A DNA stretch of 64,000 bases from Squalus acanthias (GCA_030390025.1 CM059431.1:155746001-155810000), one strand, 5' to 3'; shown: positions 6,162 through 42,835, numbered from the stretch's first letter. The notes: generated from the letters alone by a model not told the origin. Numbers and translations are program-made.

Positions 6162-7881
6162 CTGAGTATTTACATCTGTTTAGCAGGGGCCCCAGCTGAT
6201 CGCTGCCTTTATCGTGTACACCACATGTACTGAGATTCAGCTCTTCTATCAGTTCAATGGCCATTAACGATTTTGACAAAACCGCACAGTCATAAGGTTT
6301 AAGAAGACAGTGAGTGAATGTCATTGGCTTTAACGGTGTTAATGCGTCCGTGATCAAATTTGTGTATCCAAATTCAATAAAATAATGTAATACCTTTAAG
6401 AATGTCTTTTGGGTTTGTCCATCTTCCAAGTTCTGAATATATCTCTTGACATTTTCTGCGAGCCAAGCTGACACACACGGGGTTACGTCAGAAGGGAATT
6501 CGCCCAATTTGAACTTAAGCTGATCAGTTGATATCCGTGAGGAAAGACCAACAAGAAAACGCGATATTATCTTAAATCTGTCGTCACTGCACGTGCACCA
6601 TTCATTGAGCAATCGTGTCAGACCATTTCCTCGTGTAATTAGACTTTTCTTAAGTGCAGCGACAAAGTCTTGCATAACGGAATGCGTGAATGTGTAGACA
6701 ACACTACACGGATCTTTGTCTGAAATCTCGATTATAAACTCAGAGATAAAGTTGAAATGTTGGACTCTGTGGCGATTGAATTGGTCCGTTTGAAGCACAA
6801 CGGTTTTGTTGCAAACTCCATTGTAGGCTGACTCGCCCAATTTCAGCAACATGTTGCGAGAGGTTTTCGCGTCACAGCCGCATCTCTGTAAAATGTTTGT
6901 GACGTATGCGGATAACACCAGCATGCTGGTTGTGAAGAACAATGGTCTCTCCCCCGCTCCTTGTATCCGGTGTGACTCTAATAATTGAGCGAGGACTGAG
7001 CAGTAATAAGGAGTATAGCATATGGTGTACAAAGTCTCATTCTGCTCAATGTCCTAGATTGCAGCTGTGGCAAACTGTTCATCTTCAAAATAACAGCGAA
7101 AATACAGTTCTATTTCCTCAGAGGTGAAACCCAAGATTTCCACCGTTTGAAATAATTTTGATTTTACCAGAGTCTCCAGTTTCCATGGTCGGCTTGTGAT
7201 CAGTATTGAGCAGCCTTTGAGCAGCTCTCCCTGTATGAGGCAGCGCACGATGTCTGACACAACGCAGCAGCACTCGGGATCGAAACATTGATTTTTGGGG
7301 ATCGTTGTTTCTCTGAATATCGGTGAAATCAATGGTTTGCTCAAATTGGTCTAAATCATCAAATATAAACAATATTTTTTCGGATTTTTTCCACAAACGT
7401 TCCAACTCAGTTTCAAAATCAGGGTAGGAATCCAGGATCAGGCTATTTAGACATGTTTATCCTTTTATTACGTTCAATTGTCGAACCTTAAAAGGAAAGA
7501 TAACTTCAAACTGTTGGTATATTTTCCCTGCGGCCCATTCACTGATTATCTTCTGTATCATGGTGCTTTTCCCAATCTCCGAGGCCCCAATTACCGCAGT
7601 TGTCCCAGACCTGCCTGTTTTAGCGAAACTCAGCAATTGATCCAGCTGAATCTCTTCCATTTCATTCTCGATGTTTTTCCTCTGTAATCCTTCACGTTCA
7701 CTACCGCGGGCCTTCACTTCTTTTTCTAACAGTCTCCGCTCACGCAGGGAAGCAATAATCGTTACTTTAGTATATTTTTCATCAAGAAAAAATCTTCGAA
7801 ATCTTTCTTTTCCTACAGTGGTGTTAACTGTTATTTTCTCGTTCTGTTTGCGGAGCGTGTCTTTGTGCTGTCGTTCTATCC
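6162..7881 (-). pseudogene. NLR large exon: FISNA-like, NACHT, HD1/WHD/HD2 and first LRR; disrupted
   Basis: Acceptor ttcaag|GG at 7881 and donor AG|GTAATT at 6162. Motifs: Walker A GASEIGKST, Walker B ILFIFDDLDQ, sensor 1 ILITSRP, VEILGF, CYTPYYC, WHD FTHSVMQDFVAA, and LRR IEELNLSTCGV. Lesions: in-frame TAA 7457-7459, frameshift at about 7290-7300, in-frame TAG 7054-7056. Confidence 0.9.
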
Positions 7882-9449
7882 CTTGAATATGAATAACGTC
7901 ATTGGTGTCTTCATTGTAAATCAGGAGACAAATATTTAATAGATCAGTGTTTTAAAGGAGAAACTAATCGTCAAGAAACATGAAAAACATATCTAAAAAT
8001 GTTCTCAGCAATGAGTCATCCCTGAATTATTTTACATTTAAATGGCCAGATAATCATAGAAAAAAAATAATAGAATTGCTGAAGTAGCAGTAAAATATAG
8101 CATGAAGCAAGTTTAAGGATTGTAGGCCGTTTGCTGTTGGATTTTGAGCTTCTGGTAATGAAGATTTCTAAATTTCGATATGAAATGCAAAAGTAAATCT
8201 TGGTAATTGTGCTGGTATTTTCTGTTCTCATGTCAGTTGGGTTATGAACGACTCCTGGTTTCGTCCAGTAACAAACAATGTTGGCGAACCGCGGGTCTGG
8301 GCAGAAAAGGAGTTCCTTCATTATATTCTAACCTCGGGGATTCCATTTGTTTTGATTCCGCTGCTCCATGCTTTAATCTTGGCCAGCGAAGCCCACAGGT
8401 GACTCCAGGGTCAGACCAGTGGGGAGAATCGCAGACACCCAGAGATGGAGAGCCGAAGGAAGTCCATCATTTTACTGCTTGTTATGTTGCGAAATTTCAT
8501 GTTGTTATGGTCAGTCTCTACGGTATATTATATTTGGTGTCGAACGTGTTTTTTTGCGTATCAGTTTGTATTACTACCTAGTTCATTTTACAAGAATTTT
8601 TCTATTTTTTTCTATATATATCTGCACAGATACAAAAGTATTTACATGTATATATACATAAAATACAGATGTAAACATACATTGGTATCAAAATATAAAT
8701 TTACCATATTTTGAAACGCAGTGGAGATTTCTTACTCCCACAAATACCATTAATGTCCACGTTGAAACCGCCGCTCCAAATAGGAAAACGCATTACGTGA
8801 CTACAGCAGGACACAAATGGTATGAAGTCAGGCCTCCCGATATTTAGTTCCATTGGTCAAGGGAAGGCAACATTGGACCGAGCACATAATGGGCGGCAGA
8901 TGTAATACCGCCCGTTTTGCTTCCCCACCAATTCAATTTGCACCCACAAAGTTAAACTAACCAATTTCAGAAAAAGTCACAATCTGTCAGCTTGCCTACA
9001 TGCACTGCCACGTTGATGCAAGAAAAAATTGCTTTTCGATATGTTTACTGAAATATGGCATGCAAATTGTGCGATGGCAATAACGTTTTGTGAAACAAGT
9101 CAAAATAATCCGTATTGACCTCATCCTATTTTATGTCATTGTTTGGTTTTATTTTAATTATAGAGTTGTCCAATATAAGTGTTACGTTGTGAAATTGGCC
9201 ATGGGCGCGGCATGCTAAAAAAAATGTTATTGCATCGATCGCCTGTTACAAGCTCCGTCCAATATTCGGATCAATTGACTTTAATTGAACCGATAACCTG
9301 GCGTGTGTTATAACTATTTCACAAAGATTTCTGCCCTAAAATCCCGTATGAGCTTCGGTGTCAACTTATGTTTGCTAATACTGCTGTGAAGCAACTCGGG
9401 ATGGTTTACTTCGTTAATGGCGCTATTTAAATGCAAGTTGTTGTTGTTG

Positions 9450-9838
9450 CCAGGCGTTTATGGGTATTCAGCGCGTATCAGGATCCTTCTATTTGTGTTC
9501 AATGATTAACAGCGTGTCTAAATTATTCCATTTTCAGAGAGTATCAGGAGCCGGCCAGGTGTGTATGGGGTTTCTCAGTGTATCGGGATCCTGCCAGGGT
9601 GTGCATGGGTTTTCACAGTGTATCTGGATCCTCTCAAGTGTGTATGCGTTTTCTCAGTGTATCGGGATCCTGCCAGATGTGTATTGGGATTCACAGTGTA
9701 TCAGGTTCCTGTTAGGTGTGTATGGGTTTTCACAGTGTATCTGGAACCTGCCAGGTGTGTTTGGGTTTTCACAGTGTGTGAGGTTCCTGACAGGTGTTAA
9801 TGGGGTTTCAAAGTACATCAGGATCCTGCAAGTTATGT
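9450..9838. repeat. Degenerate minisatellite, unit about 37-38 bp
   Basis: Repeated gtgtatgggttt(t)cacagtgtatcaggatcctgccaggt-like units. Confidence 0.85.
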
Positions 9839-9842
9839 CATT

Positions 9843-10224
9843 GAGTCATAAAGTCATAGAGTCATAACGGCAGAGAAGGAGGCCATTTGGTCCATCGAAT
9901 GCGTGCCGGCTCACTGTAGAGTGATCCAGTCAGTCCCATTACGCCGCTCTATCCCGGTAGCCCTACAAGTTTATTCCCCTCAAGTGCCTATCCAGTCTCC
10001 CCTTGAAAACTTTGAGTTTTTCCGCTTCAAGCACTTCGGTCGGGAGCGAGTTCCAGGTCCTCACCACTCTTTGCATAAAAAAGTGTTTCCTCACATCCCA
10101 CCTGCATCTCTTGCCCGAAACATTAAATCTGTGTCCCCTAGTCCTTGTACCATCAACTAGTTGGGCCAGCATTTCCCCTTCTAGCCTATCCAACCCGTCA
10201 TAATCGTGTACACCTCTATCAAAG
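9843..10224 (-). mobile_element. CR1 3' end fragment inserted in the minisatellite
   Basis: Tail repeats gtcata(a/g)a. Minus ORF 9963-10250 reads TRTRGHRFNV..FFMQRVVRTWNSLP. Confidence 0.85.
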
Positions 10225-10830
10225 ATATATGCAGGTTCACTGTTTATCATGATATGCCAGTTGCGTGTGGGCTTTCACAGCGTATCAGGCTCCTGTCAGG
10301 AATGTGTGGGGTATCACATTTTGTCGGTGTTATGTCAAGTAGTTATGCTTTTGACAGTGTATCAGAATCCTGCCAGGTGTGTATAAGTATTCGCAGTTTA
10401 TCAGGATTCTGCTATGCATGTTCATGAATTCACAACGTATAAGGATCCTACCAGGTGGGTTTGGGGTTTTAGATTATAACGAGAGTCTGCGAAATATATA
10501 TGGGGTTTATATTTTATCATGTTTCCGCCACATGTATAAGGGTTTATCCAGCATTTCTTGAATCCTGCTAGATGTGTTTTAGTTCCAAATGTACAGGTAT
10601 CGTGGCAGGTGTGTACAGGTTTTCACAGTGTAACAGGATCCTTCCACGTTTGTATGGGTTTACACAGTTTAATAGGATCCTAACCCAAGTGTATGGGGTT
10701 TCAAAGTATTTCAGGCTCCTGCAAGGTAGGCATGCGGTTTCATAATATATCACAATCCTGCCTGATGTCTATTGGGATTCACAATGTATTGTTTCCTGCA
10801 AGGTTTGTATTATTGTTCAAAGTATATTGT
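10225..10830. repeat. Continuation of the ~37 bp minisatellite
   Basis: Same gtgtatggg..cacagtgtatcaggatcctgccag unit. Confidence 0.8.
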
Positions 10831-11972
10831 CAAGGCCTCCATAATCAGCACCTGTGAAGAGACGCTCAGTCACTCGATCAGGAACCACCAAGACTGGTCC
10901 GATGAGTACAACCAGGAGTTCCAGGAGCTAATAAGCCACATGCGCAAGGCATTCCTGATCTGGAAACAGCAACAGAACTCGAGAGCAACACAGCAGCTCT
11001 ACAGACGCCTGAAGGCCGAAGTCCAACAATAAACTCGCGACCTAAAGAACAGATGGTAGGTGGAGAATATGCAGGACATCCAGCAGCTATCCGACAAACA
11101 CGACGTGCGTGGATTATTTAGCGCAGTCAAGATCATCTATGGCCCAAGCACACAAGGCCCTACCCCACTGCAATGCAAGAACGGAGAGATACTCATCAAG
11201 GACAGAGCGGCAGTCAGTGCCTGCTGGAATGATCGCTTCGATGTTCTTCTTAACGGCTACTCTGTCTTCGACGCGAGTGTCCTCAAATCCATCCGGCAGC
11301 ATGCTTCCCGCCACCATCTCAGCACAATCCCAGCCCGGCATGAGGTTGAAAAGGCCATCCGGCAACTGAAGAACAACAAGGCCTCAGGAGCAGATGGAAT
11401 CCCCGCCGAGGCACTAAGGTATGGCGGAGAAGCACTACTGTCGCTAATTCAGGAACTCATTTCTCTTATCTGGAAGGAGGTGAGCATGCCAGAGGATCTC
11501 AGAGATGCCTTAATTGTGACCATCTTAAAGATTGCGGTAATTACAGAAGAGTTTACCCGCTGTCTGCCACAGGGAAAGTCATCGCAAGAATCCTCCTCAA
11601 TTTCTTTCTCACAGTGGCCGAAGAGCTCATCCCAGAGTCGCAATCCTGATTCCACTCACTAAGGGGCACAATGGACATGATCTTCATCGCACGTCAATTA
11701 CAAGAGAAACGCAGGGACCAGCACCAACCGCTGTACATGGCCTTCTCTGACGTCACAAAGGCCTTGGACACTGTCAACCATGAGGGATTATGGAGTGTCC
11801 TGCTCAAATTCGGCTGCCCTGAAAAGTTTGTCACCATCCTCCGCCTGCTTCACTACGACATGCAAGCCCTGATCCTAAACAACGGTTCCACCACAATCCA
11901 ATTCACGTAAGAACTGGGGTCAAGCAAGGCTGTGTCATCGCACCAACGCTATTCTCGATCTTTCTTGCAGCA

Positions 11973-13181
11973 TGATGCGGAGATGCCGGTGTTGGACTGG
12001 GGTGGACAAAAATGAGATGTCGCACAACACCAGGTTATAGTCCAACAGTTTTATTTAAAATTACTTGCTTTCGGAGCTGTTGCCCTCGTAAGAATGGGAT
12101 ATGACGCTCGACTCGTCGATCGACAGTTCCGACGGGCCACAGCGAAAAACCGCATAGACCTCCTCAGAAGGGGAACACGGGACACAAACCAACAGAGTAC
12201 CCTACGTCGTCCAGTACTTCCCCGGAGAGGAGTAACTACGCCATGTTCTTGGCAGCCTTCAACATTTCATCGATGACGACGAACACCTTGCTAAGGCCAT
12301 CCCCATGCCTCCACTACTCACCTTCAATCAGCCTTCTAACCTCAAAAGTACCATAGTTCGCAGCAATTTCCCCAGCTGTCAGGAGAACAGCGACCACGAC
12401 ACCACACAACCCTGCCACGGCAAACTCTGCAAGACATGCCAGATCATGAACACAGATACCATCATCACACGTGAGGACACTACCCACCAGGTACATGGTA
12501 CATACTCAAGTGACTCGGCCAACGTTCTGTACCTGATACGTTGCAGGAAAGGATGCCCAGGAGCATGGTACATCGGCGAGACCATGCAGATACTGAGACA
12601 ACGTATGAACGGACACCGTGCAACAATCGCCAGGGAGGATTGTTACCTCCCAGTCGGGGAACACTTCAGCAGTCAAGGACATTCAGCCTCGGATCTGTGG
12701 GGTAGCATTCTTCAAGGCGGCCTTCGAGACACACGACAACGCAAAATCATCGAGCAGAAACTGATAGCCAGCTTACGCACCCATGAGGACGGCCTCAATA
12801 GGGATCTCGGGTTCATGTCACGCTACAGAACGTGACTCGACATCGTTGTATGTCTTTCCAGTTTTTAAATAAAAATAAAACACAAAAAACAAATCCAAAA
12901 AAACAACCCAAAAAAGAAAACTCAACTGCCGATGGCAGGATTTGACATTTTGGACCCCCTGTGACCCGCCCCATTGTCTTGGCTGTGCTCTGGTGTGTCT
13001 TTGATGTAATGCCTCCCAGAAATATTGTATCTCTGCAGACAAATTGCTTTCTGTGTTTATATACTGTATAATAGATTCCCTCATTATAATTTTACCTGAT
13101 GAAGAGGCAACAGCTCCGAAAGCTCGTAATTTTAAATAAAACTGTTGGACTATAACCTGGTGTTGTGCGACTTCTCATTTA
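11973..13181 (+). mobile_element. Second Penelope-like family: truncated copy with GIY-YIG and an inverted terminal pLTR fragment
   Basis: ORF 12305-12835 reads CHGKLCKTC..NVLYLIRCRKGC..WYIGET..RQRMNGH..PVGEHF..GLNRD. 12010-12087 is the reverse complement of about 13103-13180. Imperfect TSD tttcttgcagca (11961-11972) / tttcttcctgca (13182-13193). Confidence 0.9.
13092..13129 (+). ncRNA. Minimal type I hammerhead ribozyme in the Penelope pLTR
   Basis: ttac-CTGATGA-agaggcaacagctcc-GAAA-gc-tc-gtaa. Stem I is ttac/gtaa, with a palindromic AGCT; stem II is imperfect. Confidence 0.8.
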
Positions 13182-14329
13182 TTTCTTCCTGCAATGCTCC
13201 ATCTCACCCTCAGTAAGCTTCCAGCTGGAGTGGAGCTAATTTACAGAACAGACGGGAAACTGTTCAACCTCCGTCACCTCCGGTCCAGATCCAAGGTCGT
13301 CCCATCCTCTGTCGTCGATTTAAAGTATGCAGACGATGCTTGCATCTGCGCACACTCAACGGTAAAACTCCAAACCATCGTCAAGACCTTCACCGAAGCG
13401 TACGAGTGTATGGGCCTTACTCTAAACATCCGTAAGACAAAGATCCTCTATTAAACCTGCCCCCGCCACACAGTACTGCCCCCTATTCTCAAAATCCACG
13501 ACAAGGCCTTGGACAACGTGGACCACTTTCCATTCCTCAGAAGCCTACTGTCAGCAAGGGCAGACGTCGACGACGAAGTCCAATACAGCCTTCATTGCGC
13601 CAGTACAGCCTTCGGTCGCCTGAGGAAGAGAGTGTTTGAAGACCAGGACCTCAAAACCTGCACTAAGCTCATGGTCTACAGAGCAGCAGTGATACCCGCC
13701 CTGCTGTATGCATCAGAGACATAGACCATGTACAGCAGGCACCTCAAAGCACTGGTGATGAACCACCAACGCTGCCTCAGCAAGATCCTGCAAATCCATT
13801 GGCTGGATAGCCGCACCAACATCAGTGTTCTTGCTCAGGCCAACATCCCCAGCATCGAAGCTTTGACCATGCTCGATCAGCTCCGATGGACGGGTCAGAT
13901 TTTCCGCATGCCCGATGCGAGACTCCCAAAACAAGCGCTCTACTCGGATCTCCGACACGGCAAGAAATCCCCAGGTGGGCAGAGGAAACGCTTCAAGGAC
14001 ACCATCAAAGCCTCCTTGAAAAATGTAAATTCCGCACCGACACCTGGAAATCCCATGTCCAATACAGCGCAAATTGGATACGAAGCATCCGGGAAGGTGC
14101 CGAACACCTCGAGTCTCTTCACCGGGAGCAAGCTGAAACCAAGCGCAGGCAGCGCAAGGAACGCACGTCAATCCAAGCACCCCACCCACCCGCCCCTTCA
14201 ACCACGGTCTGCCCCACCTGTGACAGAGACTGTAGGTACCGCATTGGACTCATCAGTCACCTGCAAACGCATATTTAATGTGGAAGCCAGTCATCCTCGG
14301 TAAGGAGGGACTGCCTAAGAAGAAGAAGA

Positions 14330-14680
14330 TCAATATCCTGCCAGGCTGGGTATGGGGTTTCACAGTGTATCGGGACCTGCCAGGGGTGTATGGAGATAAG
14401 CAGTGTATCGGGATTCTGCCTGGTTTGTAAGTGGTTCACAATGTATCAGGAGCCTGCCAGGTATGTACGGGGTTTCAAAGTGTAAGAGTTTACTGACAGG
14501 TGTTGATGGGATTTCAAAGTACATCTGGAAACTTCAAGTTATGTATGCAGTTCCACTTTTTATCGTGATATGCCAATTGAGTGAGGGCTTTCAAAGCGTA
14601 TAATAATCCTGCCAGGAATTTATGGGTTATCACATTTTGTCGGTATCATGTCAGGCATCTACGAGTTTAACAGTGTACCA
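14330..14680. repeat. ~37 bp minisatellite, same family, resuming after the RTE tail
   Basis: gtatggggtttcacagtgtatcgggacctgccagg units. Confidence 0.8.
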
Positions 14681-14934
14681 AGCGGGATTGAAAAAATGTG
14701 GACATGAACACTGTGTTTTATTGTATAATTTGGAAAGTGCGATTTCGGAGAAGAGGGCGAAGGAGTTGTTGTTGTTTGCCAACACTACTTGCAATGCTTT
14801 CTATTAAAGGCAGATATTTAAATTCAGTACCCTGAACTTAACCTAGATCAAGTAAGTAGACACGAAAGTACACTGTAAACTAAGTTATCTGAATACAACT
14901 TAAATTAAATTTCATTAAATAGAACAAGGTCAAA

Positions 14935-17900: not shown

Positions 17901-19203
17901 ATTGGGCCTCAACTATTCTTAATCTACATCAATGATTTGGATGAGGGGACCAATTGTAATTTTTCCAGCTTAAGATATAAAGCTGGGTGGGAATGTAAGT
18001 TGTGAGGAGCTTGAAAGGAGGCTTCAAGGGGATATAGATAGGCTAACTGAGTGGGCAAGAAATTTCAAATGGAATATAATGCGGAGAAATGTGAAGTTAT
18101 TCACATTAGTTGTAAAAATAGAAAAGCAGGGAATGTTTTAAATGGTGGGAGATTTTTCACAGTGGCAGAAGTTTGGTAGTGGTGTTCCACAAGCATCAGT
18201 GCTGGGATTCACAATTTTTATTAACGATTTAGACTTTTGAATCAAAAACACAATTTCTAAATTTGTGGATGACACCAAATAGCACGGTGGGTGTGTGGGG
18301 GGTGGGAGTCTATAGTCAATACTGAGGAGGACTAAAACAAGTTACAGGAAGAGATTAATAAACTTGCAGAAAGTGCATATAATTGGCAAATGAAGTTCAA
18401 CACAGATAAATGTGAGGTATTACATTTCGGTAGGAAGAATAGGAAGGTAACTTATAACTTGGATGGTGCGAGTCTAGGTGGGGTGGAGGAACAAAAGGTT
18501 CTCGGAGTACAAATACACAAATCACTAAAACTTGCGACACAGGTTAACAACACCATAAAATAGCAAACCAAGCTTCATTTCTAGAAGTATAGAATTGAAA
18601 ATTGGGGAAGTTATGCTTAACCTGTATCGAACCTTGGTCAGATTACACTAAGACTACTGCATACAGTTTTGGTCGCCCTATTAAATAAAGGATATAGATG
18701 CACTGGAGAGGGTGCAGTGTAGATTAACAAGGATGATAACAGAAATGCGAGGTTATACATATCAAGAAAGGATGAACAGGCTGGGTCTCCTTTCTCTTGA
18801 AAAATGAAGGCTGATGGGCGTCCTAACAGAGGTCTTTAAAATTAGGAAAGGTTTTGATCGAGTGGATACAAAGAGAATGTTTCCACTTGTGAGGAAGTGC
18901 ATAACTAGAGGCCATCAATATCAGATAGTCACCAAGAAATCCAATAGGGAATTCAGAAGAAACATCTTTACGCAAAGTGTGGTGAGATTGCGGAACTCGT
19001 TACCACAGGGAGTGGTTGAAGCGAAGAGTATAGATGCATTTAAGGGGAGGCTAGACAAGAATATGAGGGAGAACGGAATAGATGATTATACTGATGGATT
19101 TAGGTGAGGGAAGATGGGAGGAGGCTCGAGTGGAGCATAAACGCCGGCATGGAATGTTTGGGCCGAATCGCCTGTTTCTGTGCCGTATATCCTATGTATG
19201 TAA
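14935..19203 (+). mobile_element. Degraded long CR1 LINE(s): ORF1 esterase remnant plus ORF2, probably two pieces joined near 18155
   Basis: VVVGDSI (gtagttgtggtaggggacagtata) at about 15378, APE GVIYRPPN, and RT YGPVNLTSVVG. The RT core region occurs twice (about 17880 and 18180). CR1 3' UTR and tail at about 19160-19203. Confidence 0.88.
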
Positions 19204-19313
19204 TTATCAAAATAAGAAGTTGCCATAGTTGGGAGTGCAGTGGAGATTTATTGCACCCACGAAAAACAGGAATATGCATGTTGAAAACTGCGGTTCAAAT
19301 CGTAAAACACATT

Positions 19314-20056: not shown

Positions 20057-20154
20057 ATTATAGGATCAGAGCAGCAGAGACTTTCATCCGCCCTGTATTC
20101 AGTTCTACTGAACTCAATGAAAGGCAACATCGGACCGAGCGCATAACAGGCAGC

Positions 20155-22065
20155 ACAGAATCATAAAATGGTTACAGCACAGAAGGAGGCCATACGGCCC
20201 ATCGTAGCCGATGTCGGACCTCTGCAAGAGCACTTCAGCTAGTCCCACTTCCCCGCCCTTTCCACGTAGTCTCGCACATTGTTTTCTGCAGGTATTTATC
20301 TATTCCCTTTTGAAAGCCACGATTGAATCTGCCTCCACTATACTATCAGGCAGCGCATTACAAATCCTAACCACTCGCTGCGTAAAAAAGCTTTCCTCAT
20401 GTCGCCTTTGTTTTTGATGCCTATCACCTGAAATCTATGTCCTCTGGTTCTAGATCCTTCCGCTAATGGGAACAGTTTTTCTCTCTCTCGACACTGTCTA
20501 AACCCCTCATGATTTTGAGCAAATCTATGAAATCTCGTCTACTCTAAGGAGAATAACCCAAGCTTATCCAGTCTATCCACGTAACTGAAGTCCCTCATAC
20601 CTGAAACAATTCTTATAAATCTTTTCTACAATCTCTCAAAGGCCTTCACATTCTTCCTAAAGAGCTGTGCCAGAATTGGACACAATACTCCAGTTGAGGC
20701 CGATCCACTGTTTTATAAATAATCATCATAACGTCCTTGCTTTTGTATTCTATGCCTCTATTAAGGAAGCTCAGGATACTGTATGTTTTTTTACTGCTTT
20801 CTCAAACAGCCAACTTCAAAGAAATGTGCACATATGCACCCAGATCTCCCTGCTGATACACCCCCTTGAGACTTGTGCCCTTTAGTTTATATTGCCTCTC
20901 CTCGTTCTTCCTCCCATAATTTATCACTTCGCAATTTTCTGCTTAAAATTTCATCTGGCAGGTATCTACCATTCCACCAGCCTGTCTATGTCTTCTTGAA
21001 TTATATCACTACTCTCCTCAATGTTCACTATCCTTCAAAGTTTCGTGCCATCAGCAAATCTTGAAATTGTGCCCCGTACAAACATGTCCAAGTCATTAAC
21101 ATATATATCCAGAAAAGCAGTGGTCCCAGTACTGACACGTTGCGGAATACCACTGTATACCTTCCTCCAGTCCGCATAACAACCGTTCACCACTACTCTC
21201 TGTTTACTGCCACTCAGCCAATTTCATATCCATGCTTCCACTGCCACTTTTATTCCTTGGTGTTCGACATTGTTGGCAAGCCTATTAAATGGCACTTTAG
21301 CAAACGCATTTTGGATTTCCATGTACACCACATCAAACGCATTACCCTCACCACCCTCTCTGTTACCGCATCAGAAAACTCAATCAATTTAGTTAAACAC
21401 GATTTGCTTTTGCCATTCCGTGCTTACTTTCCTTAATCAATCCACACTTTTCCACGTGATTGTTAATTTTGTCCCTGATTATCGTTTCTAAACGTTTCCC
21501 TACTACCGAGGTTAAACTGAATGGTGATCTGTAGTTGCTCGGTTTATCTTTAAAGCCGTTTTGGAACAAGGGTGTAATAGTTCCAATCCTTCAGTCCTCT
21601 GGCACCACCACCGTATCTAAGGAGAATAGGAAGATTATGGCCAGTACCTCCGCAATTTCCACCCTTACCGCCCTAAGTATCCTAGATGCATCCCATCTGG
21701 TCCTGGTGACTTCTCAAATTTAAGTTTAGACAGCCTTTCGAGTACCTCCCCTTTATCAAATTTATATTCCATCCAGTATCAAAACTACCTCCGCTTTCAC
21801 TTTGACTTTGACAGCATCTTCTTTCTTTCTGAAGACAGATGCAATGTACTCATTTAATACCTTAGCTATACCCTCTGCCTCCATACGTAGGTGCCCTTTT
21901 CGTTCTTTGATCGACCGCACTCATTCTCTTACTTGCCGTTTCCTATTTATATGCCGATAGAATGCTTCTGGATCCCCTTCCATGTTAGCTGCCAATCTAT
22001 TCTCATATTCTCTCTATTCCCCTCTTATATCCTTTTTTCCTTCCCGTCTTAAATTTCTATCTTCA
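20155..22065 (-). mobile_element. CR1 LINE 3' part, degraded; paralog at 33790-35690
   Basis: Begins with an antisense CR1 3' UTR (agaatcataaaatggttacagcacagaaggaggcc) followed by RT remnants. Confidence 0.85.
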
Positions 22066-22319
22066 GTTGCGATACAGACCGTTTTTCGGCGATGAAATAA
22101 TGCAGGCCGTATCTCGCCGGATTAAAATTGAATTCAACTGATTTTCGAATGTGTTTTATAACGGTCAGAAAATGCAATTGCGCATCTTTTGTTTACTGCC
22201 CATGCAGAATTTAATCCTCACAGACTTTAATTTAAATTAAAGTAATTGCGATAAATCATGAACGTTTTATTCTTACAGTAAACACGATCTTTTTGAAGTT
22301 AGATTTGGACACCACCGAC

Positions 22320-22509
22320 CTTTCAAGTGATGTTCTACCTCTGCACCACTGTTCTGTATTTCTGACAATGTCGCTTTCAGCTTGGGTTTCGTATCCTGCA
22401 GTTGAAGAAATATGTTCCACATTATTCTTTGTGCCCGAGCTCCCACAGTGCTGACAATCTGTCGTGAAGCATCGCTTCTGAGGTGTCTTTCAACAAGGTT
22501 TTTGAATCT
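22320..22509 (-). CDS. NLR N-terminal death-fold/CARD-like exon B, module 1 (phase 0 to 1)
   Basis: Splice sites ttttttag|AGA and AAAG|GTCGGT; 190 nt, open. Reads RFKNLVERHLRSDASRQIVSTVGARAQRIMWNIFLQLQDTKPKLKATLSEIQNSGAEVEHHLK. Joins the NACHT exon in frame. Confidence 0.8.
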
Positions 22510-25500
22510 CTAAAAAACATATTGCAATCATATTGAGTCATGCAATGTAAATAATCAGATAAATAACATATTTTCACTGACTCCTATTTTGGGATGAATG
22601 AATAGAAAAGCTCACAATCGAGTGACCAAAAGATGAGCTAAACAGGTAAGTTTTAAGGAGCGTCTAAAAATAGGAGAGAGTGGTTGGTAGCCAGAGAGAA
22701 TTAACTAAGGAACTTCAGAGCTTAGGGCCGAGGCAGCTGAAGGCACTGTGAATAAAATAGGGGTTGCGGAAAAGGCCAGAATTGGCTGAACAGTTGGATT
22801 ATCGATGGTTGTCGGGCTGGAGGAGTTTGCAGAGATAGAGTGGAGCAGCGTTAAGTCATCCAGGGAATTTGTATTTTCTCAGCTGACAGAGGAATAGGGT
22901 AAGGTGCTGATTAAAAGGGGAAAGCTTACGTTTGCAGGAATAGGATTCGAACAAAATTAGGGATTATTGGTTGTTAATAACAGTAATATTTTGTAATGCT
23001 AACGATGTGGTTTCAGAAACTCAAATTTCAGAAATTGAAAACCATAAAGTTGAGTTTGAAATTAGTGCTGGCCAGAAGCACGAAATGGGCTGATAGCGAA
23101 TCGGTGGCCCACTTTATGCCGCGTCCGATTTTCTTTCTATTAACTTCCATGAGCCTTGAATTCACTCTAAGTGTCAGCTTCATTAATCGAAACTGTTGCA
23201 TAAAGTTATCAGTGACTCCCTCATGCCCTATATGAATATTGTCGTTTTCTTCTCTCTGCAGCTGTGTTCTTTGATTAACTGTTTTAGTTGATGTTTTCAT
23301 GAAATGTGACAATTGTCTCTAATTCTGTAACCTGCCATTTATTCATTTCTTGCATTTGAACGTGTTCGCTTCTGTTTTATATTATTTATGTTTACTTGAT
23401 TTGTTTTATATAATCAGCCCTGCAACCCTAGATTTAATTAAAAAAACATTTTAAATCATATTCTATGCAAGTCCAATATATTGTAGTTTGTGCTTGACCT
23501 CTTTTATTCTCGTATAATTTGTGTATCTTTTATGTCAATATTCTCCTATTTGGCAGCTTCCTATTGCGTCAACGCGACTTTTTCTGATCATTAACCTGCC
23601 AAAATATCTGGGCTAGCACTTTAGTTTCGTTTTAATTAGATTTATTCCTGTAAAATGTATATTGCTTTGATTGTCCCGTTATCGTTTACGATTCATATGA
23701 ATCCAAATGATATAATATTTTCCTAGATGTTCTACTACTGTTACCTCACCTCTAGTCCCTCCCCACTTCTAGAAATTGATCCAATTCTCATTCCTTCCAT
23801 GTTGTTCTAAAACCGTAGCAATCTAAACAACGTAAGCTGTAGGCTGCAAATAACATGCCCTTTCTCCCACACTTATCTCATTTCTATTCCTTGGATATTA
23901 AAAGCAGAAATCACTCTGTTACTGTTATTGCTGCACTTTCTCCAACGTTTCACTATTTATTTTATCTATCCATTGCCCAAGATTCGATGCATGATAATAG
24001 CACCTTATTATTCTGTAACACCAAACGTATAGATTAATTTTGCGAAGCATTCCTTATACTACTCCTGAGTTCCCGTGCTCCAATTGAATCTTTCAGTAAT
24101 TCCTTCTCCCTGTCTTAAAAAAAAAACTTGATTCCCCATTAATATTTAGTAACATGACACTTTAGCTCCTAATCTTGCCCTTACATAAGCCAGATAGATA
24201 TTAATATCTGTGCATCATAATTTATAGCATATCCCCAGAAACCCTGGGCCTTCAACTAACCAGCTATATTTGGAATAGTTTGTATATACATGTGTTAGGC
24301 AATTGTAGGAGGTATTCGGAAAAGCGAGCATGTGGACAGTACAGAGAGTCCATAGATTGTTTTTATGCAATGGGTCATTATGGCAGTCTTGACGTCAGAG
24401 GATGATGGCCGATCAGAGGCCAGTATTAGCGATGACACTGAGCAGTGAGCCGAAGTACGTGCAGGACCTGAGCTGGCCAGGAATCAAGGCATAATTTTTC
24501 ATATCCCATAGACTGGATGAATGTTGCGAGTCCTTGGTGATGCGTGAGACAATGCAGATTGTGAGAGTTTAGAAATTCAGAAAATGTTTAGTTCGATGTA
24601 AATATTGTGGCAGGGAAAGTGTTAGAACGGCAGAGAGAGGCAACCATGCTGTGATGTGCAAAGTAGCAGAGAAATCGATCAACGATTTGGTTACGTTCAC
24701 TAGAATTCACCAGAGATCCGCGCCACCGGCAGTGTCACAAACTAATCAGATGGTTCACTGGAAACAAAGGGCTGATTTGATAGAGAATAAAGGGAAACTC
24801 AAGGGCTTTAATGCCACAGTTTAGCTTTTATACATCAGTAAATTTCTTCCCGTGAGATTAGAAGTATGTCGCTATTACAAGTTTTATCTCACTCCAGAAT
24901 TTCCTTTGATGCTGAGCTGAGGACGCATGATGGCTGCGCTGCTAATAACTTATTAAATTATTAATTTCGATTCCTCTGGGCTTGGCCCGTGCAATCATGT
25001 AAATTGGGGTAATTGATCAATTGATAGGACAGCCTGTATGTCCGCTTTCCGAAACTAAAATAAACCAATCCCATGCACAAATCTGGGCACTGAATTACCT
25101 TAACAGCGAGACGTTTCACAGTGAATTCGCAGACCTGGTTTTCTTCCTGGCCACCCGGCTGTTGATTGTCGCCGTATCGCCGATGGTAATGGCATTAAAT
25201 ATCAAGGGGGGCTGATGTAAGTCTCTCTTGTTGGAAATGGTCATTGCCTGGCACTTGAGTTGCGCAAATGTTACTTGCCACTTATCCGGCCAAACCTAAA
25301 TGTTGTCCAGGTATTGCTTCATACGGGGATGGACTGCTTCATTATTGGTGGAATTTCGAATGGAGCTGAACACTGTGCAATCATTAGTGATCAGCCGCAA
25401 TTCTGACCTTATGATAGATGGCCATTGAAGAAGCACTTACCGATAATCGGGCCTTGGACGCTGCCATGAAGCAAACATAATTATACCATGAGATGATGTT

Positions 25501-25722
25501 CTCTCATTATTTAATGCTTTAATTGAAGGTTAAAAACTGAATAATTTTCCAGTGATATATTTCAGAGGAGCACTTCAAATGTTGTTTTAATTTGCCTCGA
25601 TCTCAATTTCAGCGTCAATATTCAGTACTGCTTATATCGATGATTTGCACAAAATACAGTTAATCTAACTCTGACTCATGACTCATTTAACACTATGAGA
25701 TTTCACCATATTTGTTGCATAC

Positions 25723-25883
25723 CTCATGATGTGCTTCAGTAAACACTTCTCCATCAAAAAGCTTCTGACTAACAGCCTCCACGTTTTCTTCAATTGATTG
25801 CTCCAATCTCTGACGGCAGCACTCGATAATTCTCCACAGCTGGATATCCGTGTAGCTCTGCAGCATCAGAAAGGTTTTAGTAT
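25723..25883 (-). CDS. NLR N-terminal death-fold/CARD-like exon A, module 1 (phase 1 to 0)
   Basis: Splice sites ttcag|AT and GAG|GTATGC; 161 nt, open. Reads (D)TKTFLMLQSYTDIQLWRIIECCRQRLEQSIEENVEAVSQKLFDGEVFTEAHHE. Confidence 0.8.
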
Positions 25884-26267
25884 CTGAATTTGAAGTCAAG
25901 GAGTAAATGAGAACAGATTAAAATACAGTGCCCGCTATAAAACAATGAATACTCTGGACCAATTGATACAGCAACAGCGTTTATTAAAGTCTTTCAAGCA
26001 GTCATACCGACAGTGGCGCCTCACAGAGGAGGAATTAAGAATCAATGCTGTCTTTTTTTGGTATAGTTAGGAGGAACGACCCAGGCCTTGCAACATTCGG
26101 ATTGGTTAAAGTAAGTAAGAAGTAGAAAGAGGGGGGCCTTAGAAACGGAGTCAGTGAGATTGACATCTTTGCCTGGAGTGCCGAGCAGACGAACCGATAT
26201 ACTAGAGACCACAGCGAGGGAGAGGTGTGTAACAGAGCGAATGTTAAGAAGAATGTAGCGATAAGAT

Positions 26268-28961
26268 ACATAGATACATAGAACATAGAACAGTACAGCA
26301 CAGTACAGGCCCTTCGGCCCTCGATGTTGTGCCGAGCATTGTCCGAGACCAAGATCAAGCTATCACACTCCCTATCACTCTGGTGTGCTCCATGTGCTTA
26401 TCCAATAACCGCTTGAAAGTTCCTAAAGTGTCCGACTCCACTATCACAGCAGGCAGTCCATTCCACACCCCAACCACTCTCTGAGTAAAGAATTTACCTC
26501 GGACATCCCTTCTATATCTCCCCCCCATGCACCTTATAGTTATGCCCCCTTGTAACAGCTGCCTCTACCCGAGGAAATAGTCTCTGAACATCCACTCTAT
26601 CTATCCCCCTCATCATCTTATAATCCTCTATTCAGTCGCCTCTCATCCTTCTCCGCTCTAAAGAGAAAAGCCCCAACTCCCTCAATCTTTCCTCATAAGA
26701 CCTCCCCCCCAAACCAGGCAGCATCCTGGTAAATCTCCTTTGCACTCTTTCCAATGCTTCCACGTCCTTCCTATAGTGAGGTGACCAGAACTGCACACAA
26801 TATTCCAAATGAGGTCTCACCAAGGTCCTGTACAGTTGCAGCATAACCTCACGGTTCTTAAACTCAAACCCTCTGTTAATAAACGCCAACACACCATAGG
26901 CCTTCTTTACTGGTCTATCCACTTGAGTGGCAACCTTCAGAGATCTGTGGATATGAACCCACAGATCCCTCTGCTCCTCCACGTTCCTCAGAACCCTGCC
27001 GTTGACCCTGTAATCCTTATTCAAATTTGCCCTACCAAAATGAATCACCTCGCACTTATCAGGGTTAAGTTCCATCTGCCATTTTTCGGCCCAGCTCTGC
27101 ATCCTATCAATGTCTCTTTGCAGCCTACAACTGCCCTCCACCTCATCCACTACTCCACCAATCTTGGTGTCATCAGCAAATTTACTGATCCACCCTTTAG
27201 TCCCCTCCTCCAAGTCATTGATAAAAATCACAAACAGCAGAGGACCCAGCACCAACCCCTGTGGCACACCGCTGGTAACTAGTCTCCAGTCCGAAAATGT
27301 TCCATCCACCACCACCCTCTGCCTTCTATGAGATAGCCAGTTACTTATCCAATCGGCCAAATTTCCCTCTATCCCACAACTCCTTACTTTCTTCATGAGA
27401 CGACCATGGGGAACATTATCAAACGCCTTACTAAAATCCATGTATACGACATCAACTGCTCTACCTTCATCTACACACTTAGTTACCTCCTCAAAGAATT
27501 CAATCAAATTTGTTAGGCAAGACTTACCCTTCACGAATCCGTGTTGACTATCCCTGATTAAGTTGCCCCTTTCCAAATGGTCATAAATCCTATACCTCAG
27601 GACCTTTTCCATTATCTTACCAACCACCGAAGTAAGACTAACAGGCCTATAATTATCAGGGTCATTCCTATTTCCTTTCTTGAAGAGAGGAACAACATTC
27701 GCCACTCTCCAGTCCTCTGGCACCATCCCCGTGGACAGTGAGGACCCAAAGATCAAAGCCAGAGGCTCTGCAATCTCCTCCCTTGCCTCCCAAAGAATCC
27801 TAGGATATATCCCATCTGGCCCAGGGGACTTATCGATCTTCAGATTCTTCAAAATTGCTAAAACATCTTCCCTCAGAACATCTACCACCTCCAGCCTATC
27901 CACCTTTATCACACTCTCATCCTCAAGAACATGGCCCCTCTCCTCGGTGAACACTGACGAAAAGTATTCATTCATCACCTCTCCTATCTCTTCTGACTCC
28001 ATGCACAAGTTCCCACTACTGTCCTTGACCGGCCCTACCCTCACCCTGGTCATTCTTTTATTTCTCACATAAGAGTAAAAAGCCTTGGGTTTTTTCTTGA
28101 TCCGACCCGCCAAGGACTTCTCATGCCCCCTCCTAGCTCTCCTAAGGTCTTTTTTAGCTCATTCCTTGCTACTTTGTACCCCTCAATCGACCCAACTGAA
28201 CCTTGTTTTCTCATCCTTACATACGCTTCCTTTTTCCTCTTGACTAGACATTCAACCTCTTTTGTGAACCATGGTTCTCTCACTCGGCCATTTCCTCCCT
28301 GCCTGACAGGGACATACCTATCAAAGACACGCAGTAATTGCTCCATGAAAAAGCTCCACTCTTCGTTTGTGCCTTTCCCTGATAGTTTCTGTTCCCATCT
28401 TATACTCCCTAATTCTTGCCTAATCGCATCATAATTACCCCTCCCCCAATTATAAACCCTGCCCTGCCGTATGGCCCTATCCCTCTCCATTGCAATAGTG
28501 AAAGTTACCGAATTGTGGTCACTATCTCCAAAGTGCTCTCCCACATACAAATCAAACACTTGGCCCGGTTCATTACCCAGTACCAAATCCAACGTGGCCC
28601 CACCTCTTGTCGGCCTATCCACATATTGTGTCAGGAAACCCTCCTGCACACACTGTGCAAAAACTATCCCATCCGAACTGTTTGTCCTATAAAGGTTCCA
28701 ATCAATATTTGGAAAGTTGAAGTCACCCATGACAACTACTCTGTGACCTCCACACCTATTCATAATCTGCTTTGCAATTTCTTCCTCCACATCTTTATTA
28801 CTATTTGGGGGCCTGTAGAAAACTCCTAACAACGTGACCGCTCCTTTCCTATTTCTAACTTCAGCCCATATTACCTCAGACGGCAGATCCACCTCGAACT
28901 GCCTTTCTGCCGCTGTTAAACTATCCTTGATTAACAATGCTACTCCTCCACCTTTCTTACC
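26268..28961 (-). mobile_element. Young 5'-truncated CR1 LINE with nearly intact ORF2
   Basis: ORF 28065-28937 (APE: YRPPN, GDFN, SDHN) and ORF 26632-28113 (493 aa RT: PQGLVLGP, FADD). Tail is (catagaa)n. Absent from the paralogous site gataagatggg at about 41155. Confidence 0.95.
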
Positions 28962-29224
28962 ATGGGCGGGGCCGTAGATTTATTTGAAGATGAGTAGGAC
29001 CATTTCACACATGATCAATTTGGGAGAAGAAGAGAATGTAAGTCAGTTACCCAGTGGTTTACGGATGAATGGAACTGAGGGTGAATTTCAATTTAAGCAA
29101 TAGAGCTGTGGAAAAGCTGGAGCTAGGCCCAAATGTCGTTTGAGGTATCATTTCTAAAGCTCACAGAAGCATCGATAAAGTACCAGCAAATATTCTTATG
29201 GAGTGCGTGTACAGAAAAAATAAC

Positions 29225-29332
29225 CTTTAATTGTTCCTGACGGTAATCTGAGACTCAAGGTTAGATCTAATGCCTTGAAATGAGCAGATGCTGTTGAATA
29301 ATTAGACATAGTCGTGACTTTCACGTGTTTGC
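29225..29332 (-). CDS. Possible extra linker exon (phase 1 to 1), module 1
   Basis: Splice sites ctcttcag|GC and AAAG|GTTATT; 108 nt, open (GKHVKVTTMSNYSTASAHFKALDLTLSLRLPSGTIK). A paralog of equal length is at 43189-43296. The donor is weak. Confidence 0.3.
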
Positions 29333-29965
29333 CTGAAGAGCTAATACATAATGTACAAATATTAAAAGTATGTAGCACCAAATGCAACTTCATTCGTGCT
29401 TCTCTTGTTCCTTCCTTATTTCAAGGAAAAATACATTGTGAAACAGGAACTGAGAAATGGAAAATTTGTGAAGCCAAAATGCAGTCACAATAAACTTTAC
29501 GAATATCAATACACCGAGTACAGGAAACAAAACATTGGGAAATTGTTTTCATTATCAATAGAAAATAATTACACAAAAACAAATACTTTAGCTTAGAAAT
29601 GAGTGTAGCAAGTACAGTTCCACAATTAAATGTACCCGAGCATAAAACATCCAAGAGAAAGGGCGAGGAGGATGTTGGAGAAAGTTGTGAGAGGTAGCTC
29701 TACTAAATAAAAATAATACCTCATCAACTACAACATAAACATTTATATGGCAACATAACGTGACAAAATTGTCCAAGGCGCCTAAAGGAAGTTTTAATGA
29801 GGCGTGAACATATACATTCAGGCCGAAGAAAGGTGTTGTAAGGGTTCTGGATGACTTACATTAATTGTAATAAAAAATCGCGTTTTAAGCAGACACTTAA
29901 GTAATTAACCGGGCTGCAGAGGCGGAGGTGTTTACGGAGGGAATAACAGAGTACGGGGCATGTAC

Positions 29966-30187
29966 CTTTTTCTCCACCGAAAATGTAACTCTCTTCTTCA
30001 ATATTTGTATTTCCTGCATCACAAGTGCCCGGACTAGTGCCCGCATTGTTTGCCGCATCAAGCTGTGCGTAATCTATTTTTGTCCACCAAAAAGTCGCAA
30101 AGATTCCTAGTGCGTCCAGTAGTATTGCACCGATGAATGCGAGGGGAATTGTGAATGGTTCGTCCATTATTTCAGTATCGTCAATCA
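29966..30187 (-). CDS. Exon with a predicted transmembrane helix, module 1 (phase 1 to 1)
   Basis: Splice sites gatttacag|TG and AAAG|GTACAT; 222 nt, open. Reads (V)IDDTEIMDEPFTIPLAFIGAILLDALGIFATFWWTKIDYAQLDAANNAGTSPGTCDAGNTNIEEESYIFGGEK. The ATG has a good Kozak context (ATAATGG). Confidence 0.7.
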
Positions 30188-31773
30188 CTGTAAATCACAG
30201 TACAGGTTTTGAGCTGTTGTAATTCAAGTATTCATTGATAGTCCAAACAATCTAAACCAATTTTAAAAGCTGCAGTCCGTTAACTTCCGTTTATTGATTG
30301 CGTATCGCATTGTTCAGTTCACTTTTTAATATCCTCTGCTGTTTTCACGGTTTTTCTTTGTCAGGTAATCGCAATCTTGAGCATTTCTACACTTTGGCTA
30401 AATAATGGGGTTATAAGGTGTCGCCTAGAGTTTTATCAGAGATAAATGCGAACTGTGGCTGCGTTAACTGTGCACTTATTTCCATCTTTTAGTTCATATG
30501 TTATCATTATTCTCACACAACAATAAACAATCTGTAATATATACCAGCCAATACTTACTCGGATATCGCCATTTAGTTCTGCTTTTGGATTCTGATCCAT
30601 GAGGATTTTCCTACTATAATTGAAATCGAAACAATTCACTGCTGCAGCTGGTTGCTTCTGCTGCAAGATTTGTCTGCGTAGAGGCAGGAGCTGCATTTTC
30701 CCAAGTTATATTCCTACAAGGGTTGGATGTACTTTTAGAGAGATGCGCTTGCATCTGATTCCCCACTAAGTACCAACTAATTCTAATTAACTTTTTTTAT
30801 ATAACAGCTGGTTGAAATATATGAACAATTGATTAAAAACTGAATTAACCGGAAGCGGTTCTGAAATCGGCTATTAAAATGAAGTCTCTTCAGTGAAACT
30901 TGAAGACTTTTAAACGTACAATTAGAAATCGTCATGCTTTTATTGTACATTGTTATTCTGTGACTAAATATACTATTACTTTTAAATCCGCGTCTTTACC
31001 AGCATTTTTACGAAATGTTCAGACGGCTAAACCTTATTCATTCGATATCCCTACTACTTATGAATCAATAGCTATATTTCAAATATACGAATTGAAACGT
31101 TATCACAACAAACAACGCCGATCCTTTCAAAAGAATAATCACGTTTACCATAAAGTAACGGGATTAGAGTAATTGAGGGGTAGGGGAATAATTTGGCTCC
31201 GAATGCCTGGAAATTGAAAACGGACTTTAAAATACACTGCAGATAAACACTCTAAAATTAAAAAAATGTTGCAAATATGAATCAAATTTAAATCACTTTA
31301 CCGTGTCAGGTACTTATTGTGATTTCTCATTGTTAGTTATTACCTGAAACAGAATACCGAAAGTAGCATCCTTTGCAATCAGAGACTAGATTAGCCTTTT
31401 ACCGCTGGCAAGGTTATTCAGTCACTACGTTCAAACTTCAGCACCTTTTTCAATATTCAAGTTTTATACAATTAACCAAGCTCCACATTATGCCGTTTGT
31501 CTTTTCAATCCAACAGCCAACGGATCAACACCATCTTCATTCACAATTCGGTTTACTTCCTTACTCTCCTTCGTCCAGATTTCTGCCCATTTCATCTTAT
31601 TTACTTCTTAACATTTCATGCTTCACTCCCTCCTTATAAATCATGCTGTTTCTGCTTTTCCCTCACTTCTCCCCGTCGGCACCGATGCTTCCTCTTTACG
31701 TTCCTCATGTAACCGGGATCCTGCTGTGATTTAACTGAACTTAATTTGTGAGCTAATAAAAGTAATCTCTTAC

Positions 31774-31887
31774 CTTTATTGACAGGAATGTTGCAGCGGC
31801 CGTCTACTGCGGCGGCCGAATCAATATCCATCGCCTGACAAATTGCTACACATTTAGTTCCCCTTAGCGCCAAGTTCAAGCAGGTGG
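31774..31887 (-). CDS. Short leader exon, module 1 (coding or 5' UTR)
   Basis: Strong acceptor tttttctttaatttttag|CC and consensus donor AAAG|GTAAGA; 114 nt, open in phase 1 to 1. Reads TCLNLALRGTKCVAICQAMDIDSAAAVDGRCNIPVNK. Confidence 0.6.
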
Positions 31888-35962: not shown

Positions 35963-36155
35963 CTTTCATGTCATTTTTTTCCTCTGTACCACTGTTCTGT
36001 ATTTCTGACAATTTCGCTTTCAGCTTGGGTTTTGTATCCTGCAGAAATATGTTCCATATTGGTCTTACTGCTCGAGCTCCTTTTTCTACCACGGTATTGA
36101 AAAGGTGTTGTGAAGCAACGCTTTTGTGGTGTCTTTCGACAAGGGTTCTGAATCT
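35963..36155 (-). CDS. Death-fold/CARD-like exon B, module 2 (phase 0 to 1)
   Basis: Splice sites ttttttag|AGA and AAAG|GTATGT; 193 nt, open. Reads RFRTLVERHHKSVASQHLFNTVVEKGARAVRPIWNIFLQDTKPKLKAKLSEIQNSGTEEKNDMK. Confidence 0.78.
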
Positions 36156-42830: not shown

Positions 42831-42835
42831 AGTTG

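Follow-up and report, generated by a model that had tools for sequence, protein, structure and literature searches.

The stretch of Squalus acanthias DNA considered here, 64,000 nucleotides in length (C7:155746001-155810000 of a 3.7-Gb genome, hereafter the window), carries on its minus strand, within 6162-31887, the exons of a receptor of the NLR family in which a hydrophobic segment precedes a CARD-like domain and a NACHT domain. The window locus is a dead copy, that is, a pseudogene, of an elasmobranch NLR subfamily. We consider it likely that this copy is a decayed paralog belonging to a small subfamily whose intact members are N-terminally anchored NLRs with a cytosol-facing CARD; the subfamily is real and apparently old, its transmembrane (TM) anchor being predicted from hydropathy and charge. 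The original prediction for this DNA was of a signal-anchored NLR of a type not known to be described in jawed vertebrates. As the architecture of a family, this is plausible in light of P2, a paralog left intact elsewhere in this genome, and of gene models from Scyliorhinus torazame; as a description of the window locus, which is dead, it cannot be retained.

Five minus-strand exons had been proposed, and AG/GT flanks are indeed found at 5/5, with lengths of 114, 222, 161, 190 and 1720 nt that give phases chaining as 1>1>1>0>1. The second of these pieces, at 29966-30187 (222 nt), is the TM exon and the first coding exon. Its ATG occupies 30167-30165 in a Kozak-like context (A in position -3, G in position +4), as had been claimed, and the 24-residue hydrophobic run FTIPLAFIGAILLDALGIFATFWW (~30155-30084) starts four residues past that ATG, to be followed by a juxtamembrane DYAQL, an acidic linker and a 3' end in phase 1. 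The two halves of the ensuing domain are encoded by CARD exon A (25723-25883, 161 nt, phase 1 to 0) and CARD exon B (22320-22509, 190 nt, phase 0 to 1), the latter being without three codons (AEK) found in paralogs, a gap visible both against the P2 model and against the S. torazame protein P0009 (XP_072354258). The large exon at 7881-6162 (1720 nt), now disabled, encodes the pre-NACHT region, the NACHT, winged helix and HD2 domains and a first LRR-like stretch; Pfam recognizes in it NACHT (E 1.2e-8), NOD2_WH (E 3.6e-6) and NLRC4_HD2 (E 6.7e-5), and the fragment 7457-7951 scores 35.4 bits for NACHT, above the gathering cutoff of 26.7. The exon borders coincide with those that divide P0009 into CARD-A (residues 138-187), CARD-B (190-248) and NACHT (from 247), CARD exon A of the window being 50% identical to its counterpart there.

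Alignment of the large exon with that of P2 (1456/1718 nt identical) reveals three lesions: a TAA at 7459-7457 in place of a Lys codon of the intact paralog, one extra nucleotide inserted near 7301, and a TAG at 7056-7054 in place of a Glu codon. The single spliced frame that had been proposed is open from its first piece to just beyond the NACHT Walker A motif but is broken further into the exon, so that translation from the ATG would yield 325 aa at most. In addition, six codons (RRSHRR) directly after the helix, which the paralogs keep, are deleted in the window copy. Because of the two stops and the frameshift in the NACHT exon, the deleted basic cluster and the three missing CARD codons, the window copy is unable to make a TM-CARD-NACHT-LRR protein. 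What survives of the proposed NLR is its architecture as a family feature, whereas this particular locus, with its broken NACHT exon, is a pseudogene.

One might ask if such a locus could still be alive as the source of a shortened TM-CARD protein of 325 aa that stops past Walker A, a CARD-only decoy of sorts. No stop interrupts the reading frame between the ATG and residue 325, the CARD included, and the splice sites are retained, but the stop that follows falls upstream of three further exon junctions. A premature stop so positioned triggers nonsense-mediated decay, and this would be the expected fate of the message. As the basic flank and three CARD codons have been lost, and as paralog P1 is decaying likewise, we regard a living decoy as highly improbable.

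The intact form of the gene is found elsewhere in the same genome. The TM exon occurs in 7 genomic copies (13 candidates, all scored), and in 7/7 cases a CARD-A exon of the same orientation follows 1.4-4 kb downstream. Three loci of this exon type were examined beside the window, and the order TM exon > CARD-A > CARD-B > NACHT is seen in the window, P1 and P2. P1 (C7, ~156.64 Mb) has the full exon order and a NACHT exon bearing two TGA stops and a 1-nt deletion, while P3 has TM and CARD-A exons only, with the TM-exon donor lost. The intact paralog that had been sought is P2 (contig C2044:265458-289054), in which seven AG/GT exons give an uninterrupted 884 aa in the order TM, CARD, NLRP3-like NACHT, short LRR. 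Its hydropathy profile has a single strong peak at residues 9-27, and the paralogs continue downstream of the helix as ...CWWAKRRSHRRIDY[AV]QL.... The initiator Met and the frame of the TM exon are kept in 5/5 aligned copies.

The case for a membrane helix is one of hydropathy and flanking charge. With a TM segment taken as at least 19 residues above a Kyte-Doolittle limit of 1.6, the 19-residue value (KD19) lies above it in the window (2.13, the next best in the chain being 1.05), in P2 (2.35, next best 1.36) and in the S. torazame protein P0127 (2.48), the last two having one hydrophobic peak each. In a control with the cut at KD19 >=1.9, NACHT-LRR bodies reach 1.9 in 0/120 cases, with a maximum of 1.81 over 77,712 residues. 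As for orientation, the net charge of the 15-residue C-flank exceeds that of the N-flank in 11/11 segments from this genome and six other species. The margin ranges from 1 to 7, and it is 1 in P0008 and in the window copy (-1 for the C-flank vs -2 for the N-flank), the slim margin of the latter being a consequence of the RRSHRR deletion. By the positive-inside rule, the positively charged flank faces the cytosol, and the CARD-NACHT-LRR portion would then be cytosol-facing. Some ten residues beyond the helix lies DY[AV]QL (DHAQF in P1), also common to S. torazame; the YxxL motif is one of endocytic or lysosomal sorting, and this element, like the acidic residue at mid-helix discussed below, may be a partner-binding or sorting feature.

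The same helix could be imagined as a signal-anchor for the outer membrane of mitochondria, like those of Tom20 and Tom70, placing a CARD-NLR beside MAVS-type signaling. Moderate hydrophobicity together with a positive flank directs signal-anchored proteins to the mitochondrial outer membrane, and here the helix is moderately hydrophobic with a central acidic residue, and a net charge of +4 to +5 comes right after it in P2 and P0127. A KD19 of 2.3-2.5 is nevertheless high for that class, and the DYAQL (YxxL) fits endocytic or lysosomal sorting as well, so that a mitochondrial destination strikes us as rather doubtful.

The domain following the linker had been called a death fold, and it holds as a CARD by fold (Z 9.4-8.0), albeit not by Pfam, whose CARD profile remains under threshold. 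This N-terminal domain of ~100 aa is present in 88/120 homologues (the best 120 of 720, as described below), and the window exons A+B cover the family profile A1 completely over positions 1-102 (E 4e-32). Searched against PDB sequences, the family profile found no significant match, with only ICEBERG (E 0.2) and RAIDD (E 0.91) appearing. An AlphaFold 2 (AF2) model of the domain from the S. torazame homologue, built on an 11-row alignment, has six helices and a predicted local distance difference test (pLDDT) value of 84.3. Foldseek with this model returned no match at E <=0.001, its top four rows being the CARDs of NLRC4 and ARC. VIA-align against 48,161 chains placed first the CARD of ARC (Z 9.4, root-mean-square deviation 2.5, 71 aligned), followed by those of NLRC4 (8.8), zebrafish ASC (8.2) and NOD1 (8.1-8.0). 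Among the top 32 rows, 22/32 mention a CARD in their titles, and another 8 belong to proteins that contain a CARD and align over ~80 residues, stretches that we take to be their CARDs. While VIA-align warns that Z values below ~13 can be common among helical bundles, and the Z values here are modest, the matches are CARD-specific, and assignment of the modeled domain as a CARD holds by fold.

The NACHT module is that of an NLRP3-like protein. In P2, the match to Pfam NACHT (E 7.5e-33) covers positions 2-167 of a profile 167 positions long, NOD2_WH and NLRC4_HD2 are matched as well, and the closest protein of solved structure is NLRP3 of human and mouse (E 1.2e-41), with an alignment continuous from NLRP3 residue 132. 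This alignment takes in the pre-NACHT stretch of NLRP3, known as FISNA, and it is only through this alignment with the NLRP3 pre-NACHT region that the FISNA-like element of the original prediction is implied. Pfam FISNA (PF14484) itself gave no match at E <=1 in the window or P2, and reached E 0.079 against P0012.

The distribution of hydrophobic N-termini among other chondrichthyans is consistent with a TM-bearing lineage. A search with the P2 NACHT exon gave 720 proteins at E <=1e-20 among 8000 candidates, the best 120 of which are all shark, ray or chimaera 'NLRP3/12-like' models with a top identity of 58-59%. Within these 120, an N-terminal KD19 >=1.9 is seen in 7/16 of the closest homologues vs 0/104 of the others, and the hydrophobic N-termini come from models of seven other species in a single NACHT clade. 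In a FastTree of 47 chosen rows of 121, a 17-row clade (SH-like support 100) contains all 8 TM-bearing rows, while its 30-row sister has 0; members of the clade include proteins of Heterodontus, Stegostoma, Cetorhinus, Mustelus, Scyliorhinus, Chiloscyllium, Rhincodon and the sawfish Pristis, and the rest of its rows are shorter models (several of them named isoforms) or have other N-termini. The TM label changes 7 times on this tree and 192/500 shuffles do as well, and hence support for restriction to the clade resides in the split of 8 in 17 vs 0 in 30 rather than in any fine clustering. Sharks and sawfish have been separate for more than 200 million years, and an anchor common to both would probably be >200 million years old.

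The best match to the window architecture is found in S. torazame. The TM-exon profile aligns, Met to Met, with residues 74-127 of P0009 (hhalign E 5.8e-5), and both isoform X4 of that gene (XP_072354259) and a second gene (XP_072354253/4), at 857 aa each, start at this inner, homologous Met. These models read MDEN-, a hydrophobic helix, TKRKYKP[KE]RDYAQL, CARD, NACHT and LRR, such that the proposed TM-CARD-NACHT-LRR form is matched by XP_072354259 and XP_072354253. Intact members share a common plan: a start Met four to eight residues ahead of a single hydrophobic helix of ~22-24 residues, a Lys/Arg cluster, an acidic linker of ~40 residues, a two-exon CARD, a one-exon NLRP3-like pre-NACHT/NACHT/WH/HD2 unit and three short LRR exons.

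The longer P0009 differs at its 5' end. Over residues 1-71 it shares 80% identity with an env-like repeat seen in two unrelated models; the element occupies P0009 1-71 (isoforms X1-X3), P0121 214-291 and P0122 1-78 at 75-80% identity, the other carriers being a model named LDL-receptor class A domain protein 3 and an uncharacterised model. The env-like stretch matches TLV_coat at E 0.0015, under the cutoff. This 5' piece of P0009 is likely an exon derived from an endogenous retrovirus or else a prediction artefact. A cleaved signal peptide with a Cys-rich ectodomain, as P0009 would have it, was considered as the ancestral form and ruled out on the grounds of the env-like repeat and of the inner start of X4; since residues 1-71 are shared with that repeat, signal peptide and ectodomain are a local add-on.

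That chimeric 5' ends do occur in such models, P0009 being a case in point, lends something to the idea of an independent gene for a small membrane protein, located before NLR genes, as the true home of the hydrophobic exon, whose join to the NLR exons would be artefactual. Set against this are the CARD exon A that accompanies every genomic copy on the same strand at short range, and the failure of any other protein family to match the TM exon. Furthermore, the exon ends in a phase-1 GT donor without a stop and so cannot be a complete gene, which leaves a separate gene a very improbable source.

A number of observations weigh against an anchored receptor family and deserve to be set out together. 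With regard to the helix, an acidic residue is found at its middle in 4/4 copies of the exon type (Asp in 3, Glu in 1), and a simple sum on the Hessa scale is borderline (window +1.3, P2 +0.3, P1 -1.4, P0009 -0.5). An AF2 model of full-length P0127 has residues 8-34 as one helix followed by a disordered linker, the pLDDT of the helix being only 31-39. Homology of the TM exon to S. torazame is modest (hhalign probability 66%; BLASTP E 0.009), a TM-exon profile of five rows found 0 matches at E <=0.001 among 1.84 billion representatives, and the window TM exon alone matched none of the longer proteins (51 candidates scored), although for a query so short and hydrophobic these empty searches are weak. 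Pfam CARD (PF00619) scores 15.3 bits for window exon A (positions 1-37 of 85, E 0.021) and 16.7 bits for P0009 (E 0.0075), short of the cutoff of 23.9. The RefSeq models are automatic predictions, and one of them, S. torazame isoform X5 (P0123), starts at a Met in CARD exon A (MLLKFESY) without the helix. Only 1/4 loci of the TM-exon type is intact. Between close paralogs, exon and flanking-intron identity are both ~90%, and between the two N-terminal cassettes of the window (see below) exons are 76-85% and flanks 63-85% identical; with exons no more alike than introns, the paralogs give no sign of constraint. Lastly, a search for public sequencing runs gave 13 small runs with word shares of 0.05-0.19 and no RNA run, and contigs of runs X1, X2, X9 and X10 on 21500-32000 cover the LINE (long interspersed nuclear element) and other repeats only; they reach none of the exons, show no exon-exon joint, and are silent on expression.

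Several of these points converge on a different account, in which the working proteins are soluble CARD-NLRs initiated from the Met in CARD exon A, the hydrophobic piece is a leader that as a rule is skipped, is not translated or is decaying, and the TM-NLR forms are products of automatic prediction. The X5 isoform begins precisely there, and both the window and P2 retain the Met in question; 87/88 CARD-bearing members among the best 120 homologues have hydrophilic or short leaders; paralog exon identity equals intron identity; and copies of the upstream cassette have shortened hydrophobic runs. This account does not, however, readily accommodate retention of the TM-exon Met and frame in all five aligned copies and across to S. 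torazame, the exact fit of the exon's phase 1 to CARD exon A, the recurrence of hydrophobic N-termini from seven other species in one NACHT clade only, or the recurrent charge asymmetry over the helix. We judge an exclusively soluble family unlikely. Given the start of X5 downstream of the TM exon, the anchored form may be accompanied by a soluble isoform.

The helix is also the part of these proteins that changes fastest. P0127 and P0125, S. torazame proteins of 857 aa, differ at 22 positions, 10 of which are in the first 30 residues (Fisher p 3e-10), the helix being a replacement hot spot that remains hydrophobic; between the two window cassettes, too, the helix diverges more than the flanking introns. 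Such rapid change, alongside a conserved acid at mid-membrane, could mark the helix as a recognition or partner-binding element. It may even be that the elasmobranch NLRP3-like CARD-NLR clade consists of integral membrane proteins in which the helix is more than a tether, engaged in recognition or partner binding within the bilayer, with tandem cassettes supplying alternative helices, an extension of the anchored-receptor reading that we hold to be rather improbable.

The second N-terminal cassette referred to above lies upstream in the window on the same minus strand (35963-44149), without a NACHT exon of its own. It comprises a TM-like exon at 43922-44149, CARD-A' at 40615-40775 and CARD-B' at 35963-36155, with AG/GT borders and open frames, and family profile A1 recognizes it (E 9e-25). 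Above it, an exon-like piece at 45852-45962 (minus strand) has lost both AG and GT, and no NACHT exon separates this cassette from the next. The two-cassette layout is repeated at P1. CARD-B' ends in phase 1 and so could splice to 31887 or to 7881, making alternative 5' cassettes that serve one NACHT-LRR body possible. At L007 (C7:158022276-158022629) and L006, both of the upstream-cassette exon type, the hydrophobic runs extend to only 12-14 residues or contain stops, which suggests that this exon type is decaying or was never membrane-spanning.

The outermost of the five predicted pieces, an exon-like segment of 114 nt at 31774-31887 on the minus strand (phase 1 to 1, AG/GT and an open frame here), is doubtful as an exon, and its proposed standing as the first exon finds no support in the other genomic copies. 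Across 6 such copies, 3/6 have in-frame stops, 4/6 have lost the GT donor and 2/6 the AG acceptor, and the window copy is the only one (1/6) to retain AG, GT and an open frame; at P2, a stop is present and the GT absent. The piece has no similarity to P0009 (E 16) and no Pfam match. A coding or ectodomain role for it was rejected in view of the decayed genomic copies and the absent similarity to P0009.

At the other end of the gene, the LRR exons that had been placed within 6162-31887 are neither there nor anywhere else in the window, across the whole of which a separate LRR exon was searched for and not found. Three open LRR exons are instead situated 2.3-4.4 kb past the window's left edge (L022 7632-7727, 7178-7366 and 5648-5737), with 53-78% identity to the LRR exons of P2, and it is by way of these that the locus has the LRRs of an NLR. 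One of these exons taken alone has no Pfam match; the homologous region of P0009 matches LRR_6 at E 1.1e-6. A segment at 19139-19213 that had looked like an LRR exon was rejected as a repeated intronic element that is also found after the NACHT donor. This element (YTAQKQAIRP...MPAF, minus strand, 19139-19213 and 6040-6120) sits in the long upstream intron and after the NACHT-exon donor, and it recurs at the same relative positions in P1 and P2.

Much of the remaining sequence is repetitive. The intron between TM exon and CARD-A holds a minus-strand LINE at 26632-28979 with endonuclease and reverse transcriptase domains (Pfam RVT_1 E 4e-36, Exo_endo_phos E 4e-14), and LINE-type reverse transcriptase/endonuclease fragments on both strands (1-4258, 11060-14303, 39400-40146 and 49064-55177 of the window) fill the long introns and the gaps between cassettes. 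In the genome as a whole there are 113 exons related to CARD exon A and at least 150 related to CARD exon B. On contig C7, within some 6 Mb at ~153.7-159.6 Mb, CARD exon A is present >110 times and CARD exon B >=150 times, both counts being lower bounds. This array is a very large NLR cluster, most of whose members are without the hydrophobic exon.

Vertebrate NLRs are taught as cytosolic sensors, for which arrival at a membrane is key to the activation of NLRP3 and of NOD1/2, and this membrane association is gained by lipidation or a polybasic patch. If the intact shark proteins are anchored as proposed, the helix would be an N-terminal signal-anchor that escapes cleavage, and its flanks, acidic before and basic behind, would leave a tiny N-terminus luminal or outside and the CARD-NACHT-LRR portion cytosolic, tethered to the membrane. 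Ligand-driven oligomerization of the NACHT on the membrane surface would then cluster the CARDs, and the clustered CARDs would recruit a CARD adaptor or caspase. The anchor would in this way hard-wire an association that NOD1/2 and NLRP3 must acquire.

Three vertebrate systems invite comparison. With NLRP3, the shark form shares the pre-NACHT region and the best match of the P2 NACHT, both proteins being membrane-tied near the pre-NACHT. NLRP3 uses a polybasic patch and palmitoylation for membrane binding, whereas the shark form has a CARD rather than a PYD, a TM helix rather than peripheral binding, and a far shorter LRR (three exons). With NOD1, NOD2 and NLRC4 it shares the CARD-NACHT-LRR order, the CARD fold of NOD1 and NLRC4 (Z 8.0-8.8) and matches to the NOD2_WH and NLRC4_HD2 profiles. 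The shark NACHT is nonetheless nearer to those of the NLRPs, with E 5e-23 for 5irl, presumably rabbit NOD2, vs 1e-41 for NLRP3, and NOD1/2 reach membranes by S-palmitoylation, not by a helix. MAVS, finally, is likewise a CARD protein held at the membrane by a single helix with its CARD in the cytosol, and the CARDs of MAVS and RIG-I are among the fold matches of the shark CARD, at Z ~6; the MAVS anchor is a C-terminal tail, and MAVS has no NACHT or LRR.

In the part of the full-text literature that was searched, no transmembrane NLR is described in a jawed vertebrate, and the NACHT proteins predicted or shown to be membrane-bound all come from anthozoans, sponges or a sea cucumber; the architecture proposed here is plausible and, within that literature, undescribed. 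Anthozoan NLRs with three to four helices are presented as the first putative membrane-bound NLRs, with weak signals in sponge (PMC3879445). These anthozoan proteins carry, besides their helices, a gap-junction-like Cys-rich domain, in contrast to the one helix of the shark form and an exon without any Pfam domain. Ig-TM-NACHT receptors are reported from sea cucumber (PMC13133943); these have Ig domains, one with an extracellular NACHT, as opposed to the CARD and almost absent ectodomain of the shark form. An independent origin of the shark and invertebrate membrane NLRs is likely. Closer to home, a novel NLRP-related NLR family is expanded in whale shark (PMC8455134). That family and the present one are both chondrichthyan and NLRP-like, but the accessible text of the whale shark study describes no N-terminal anchor, its two uses of 'transmembrane' being not about NLRs.

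For the window copy itself, the findings add only evidence for birth-and-death turnover in the cluster. The broader proposal can be tested cheaply, given that the relevant sequences are already in RefSeq as 'NLRP12-like'. If it is true, elasmobranchs would possess a natural, genetically encoded membrane anchor on an NLRP3-like CARD receptor, a comparison for the role of membrane placement in NLR assembly, and membrane-bound NLRs would have arisen more than once in animals.

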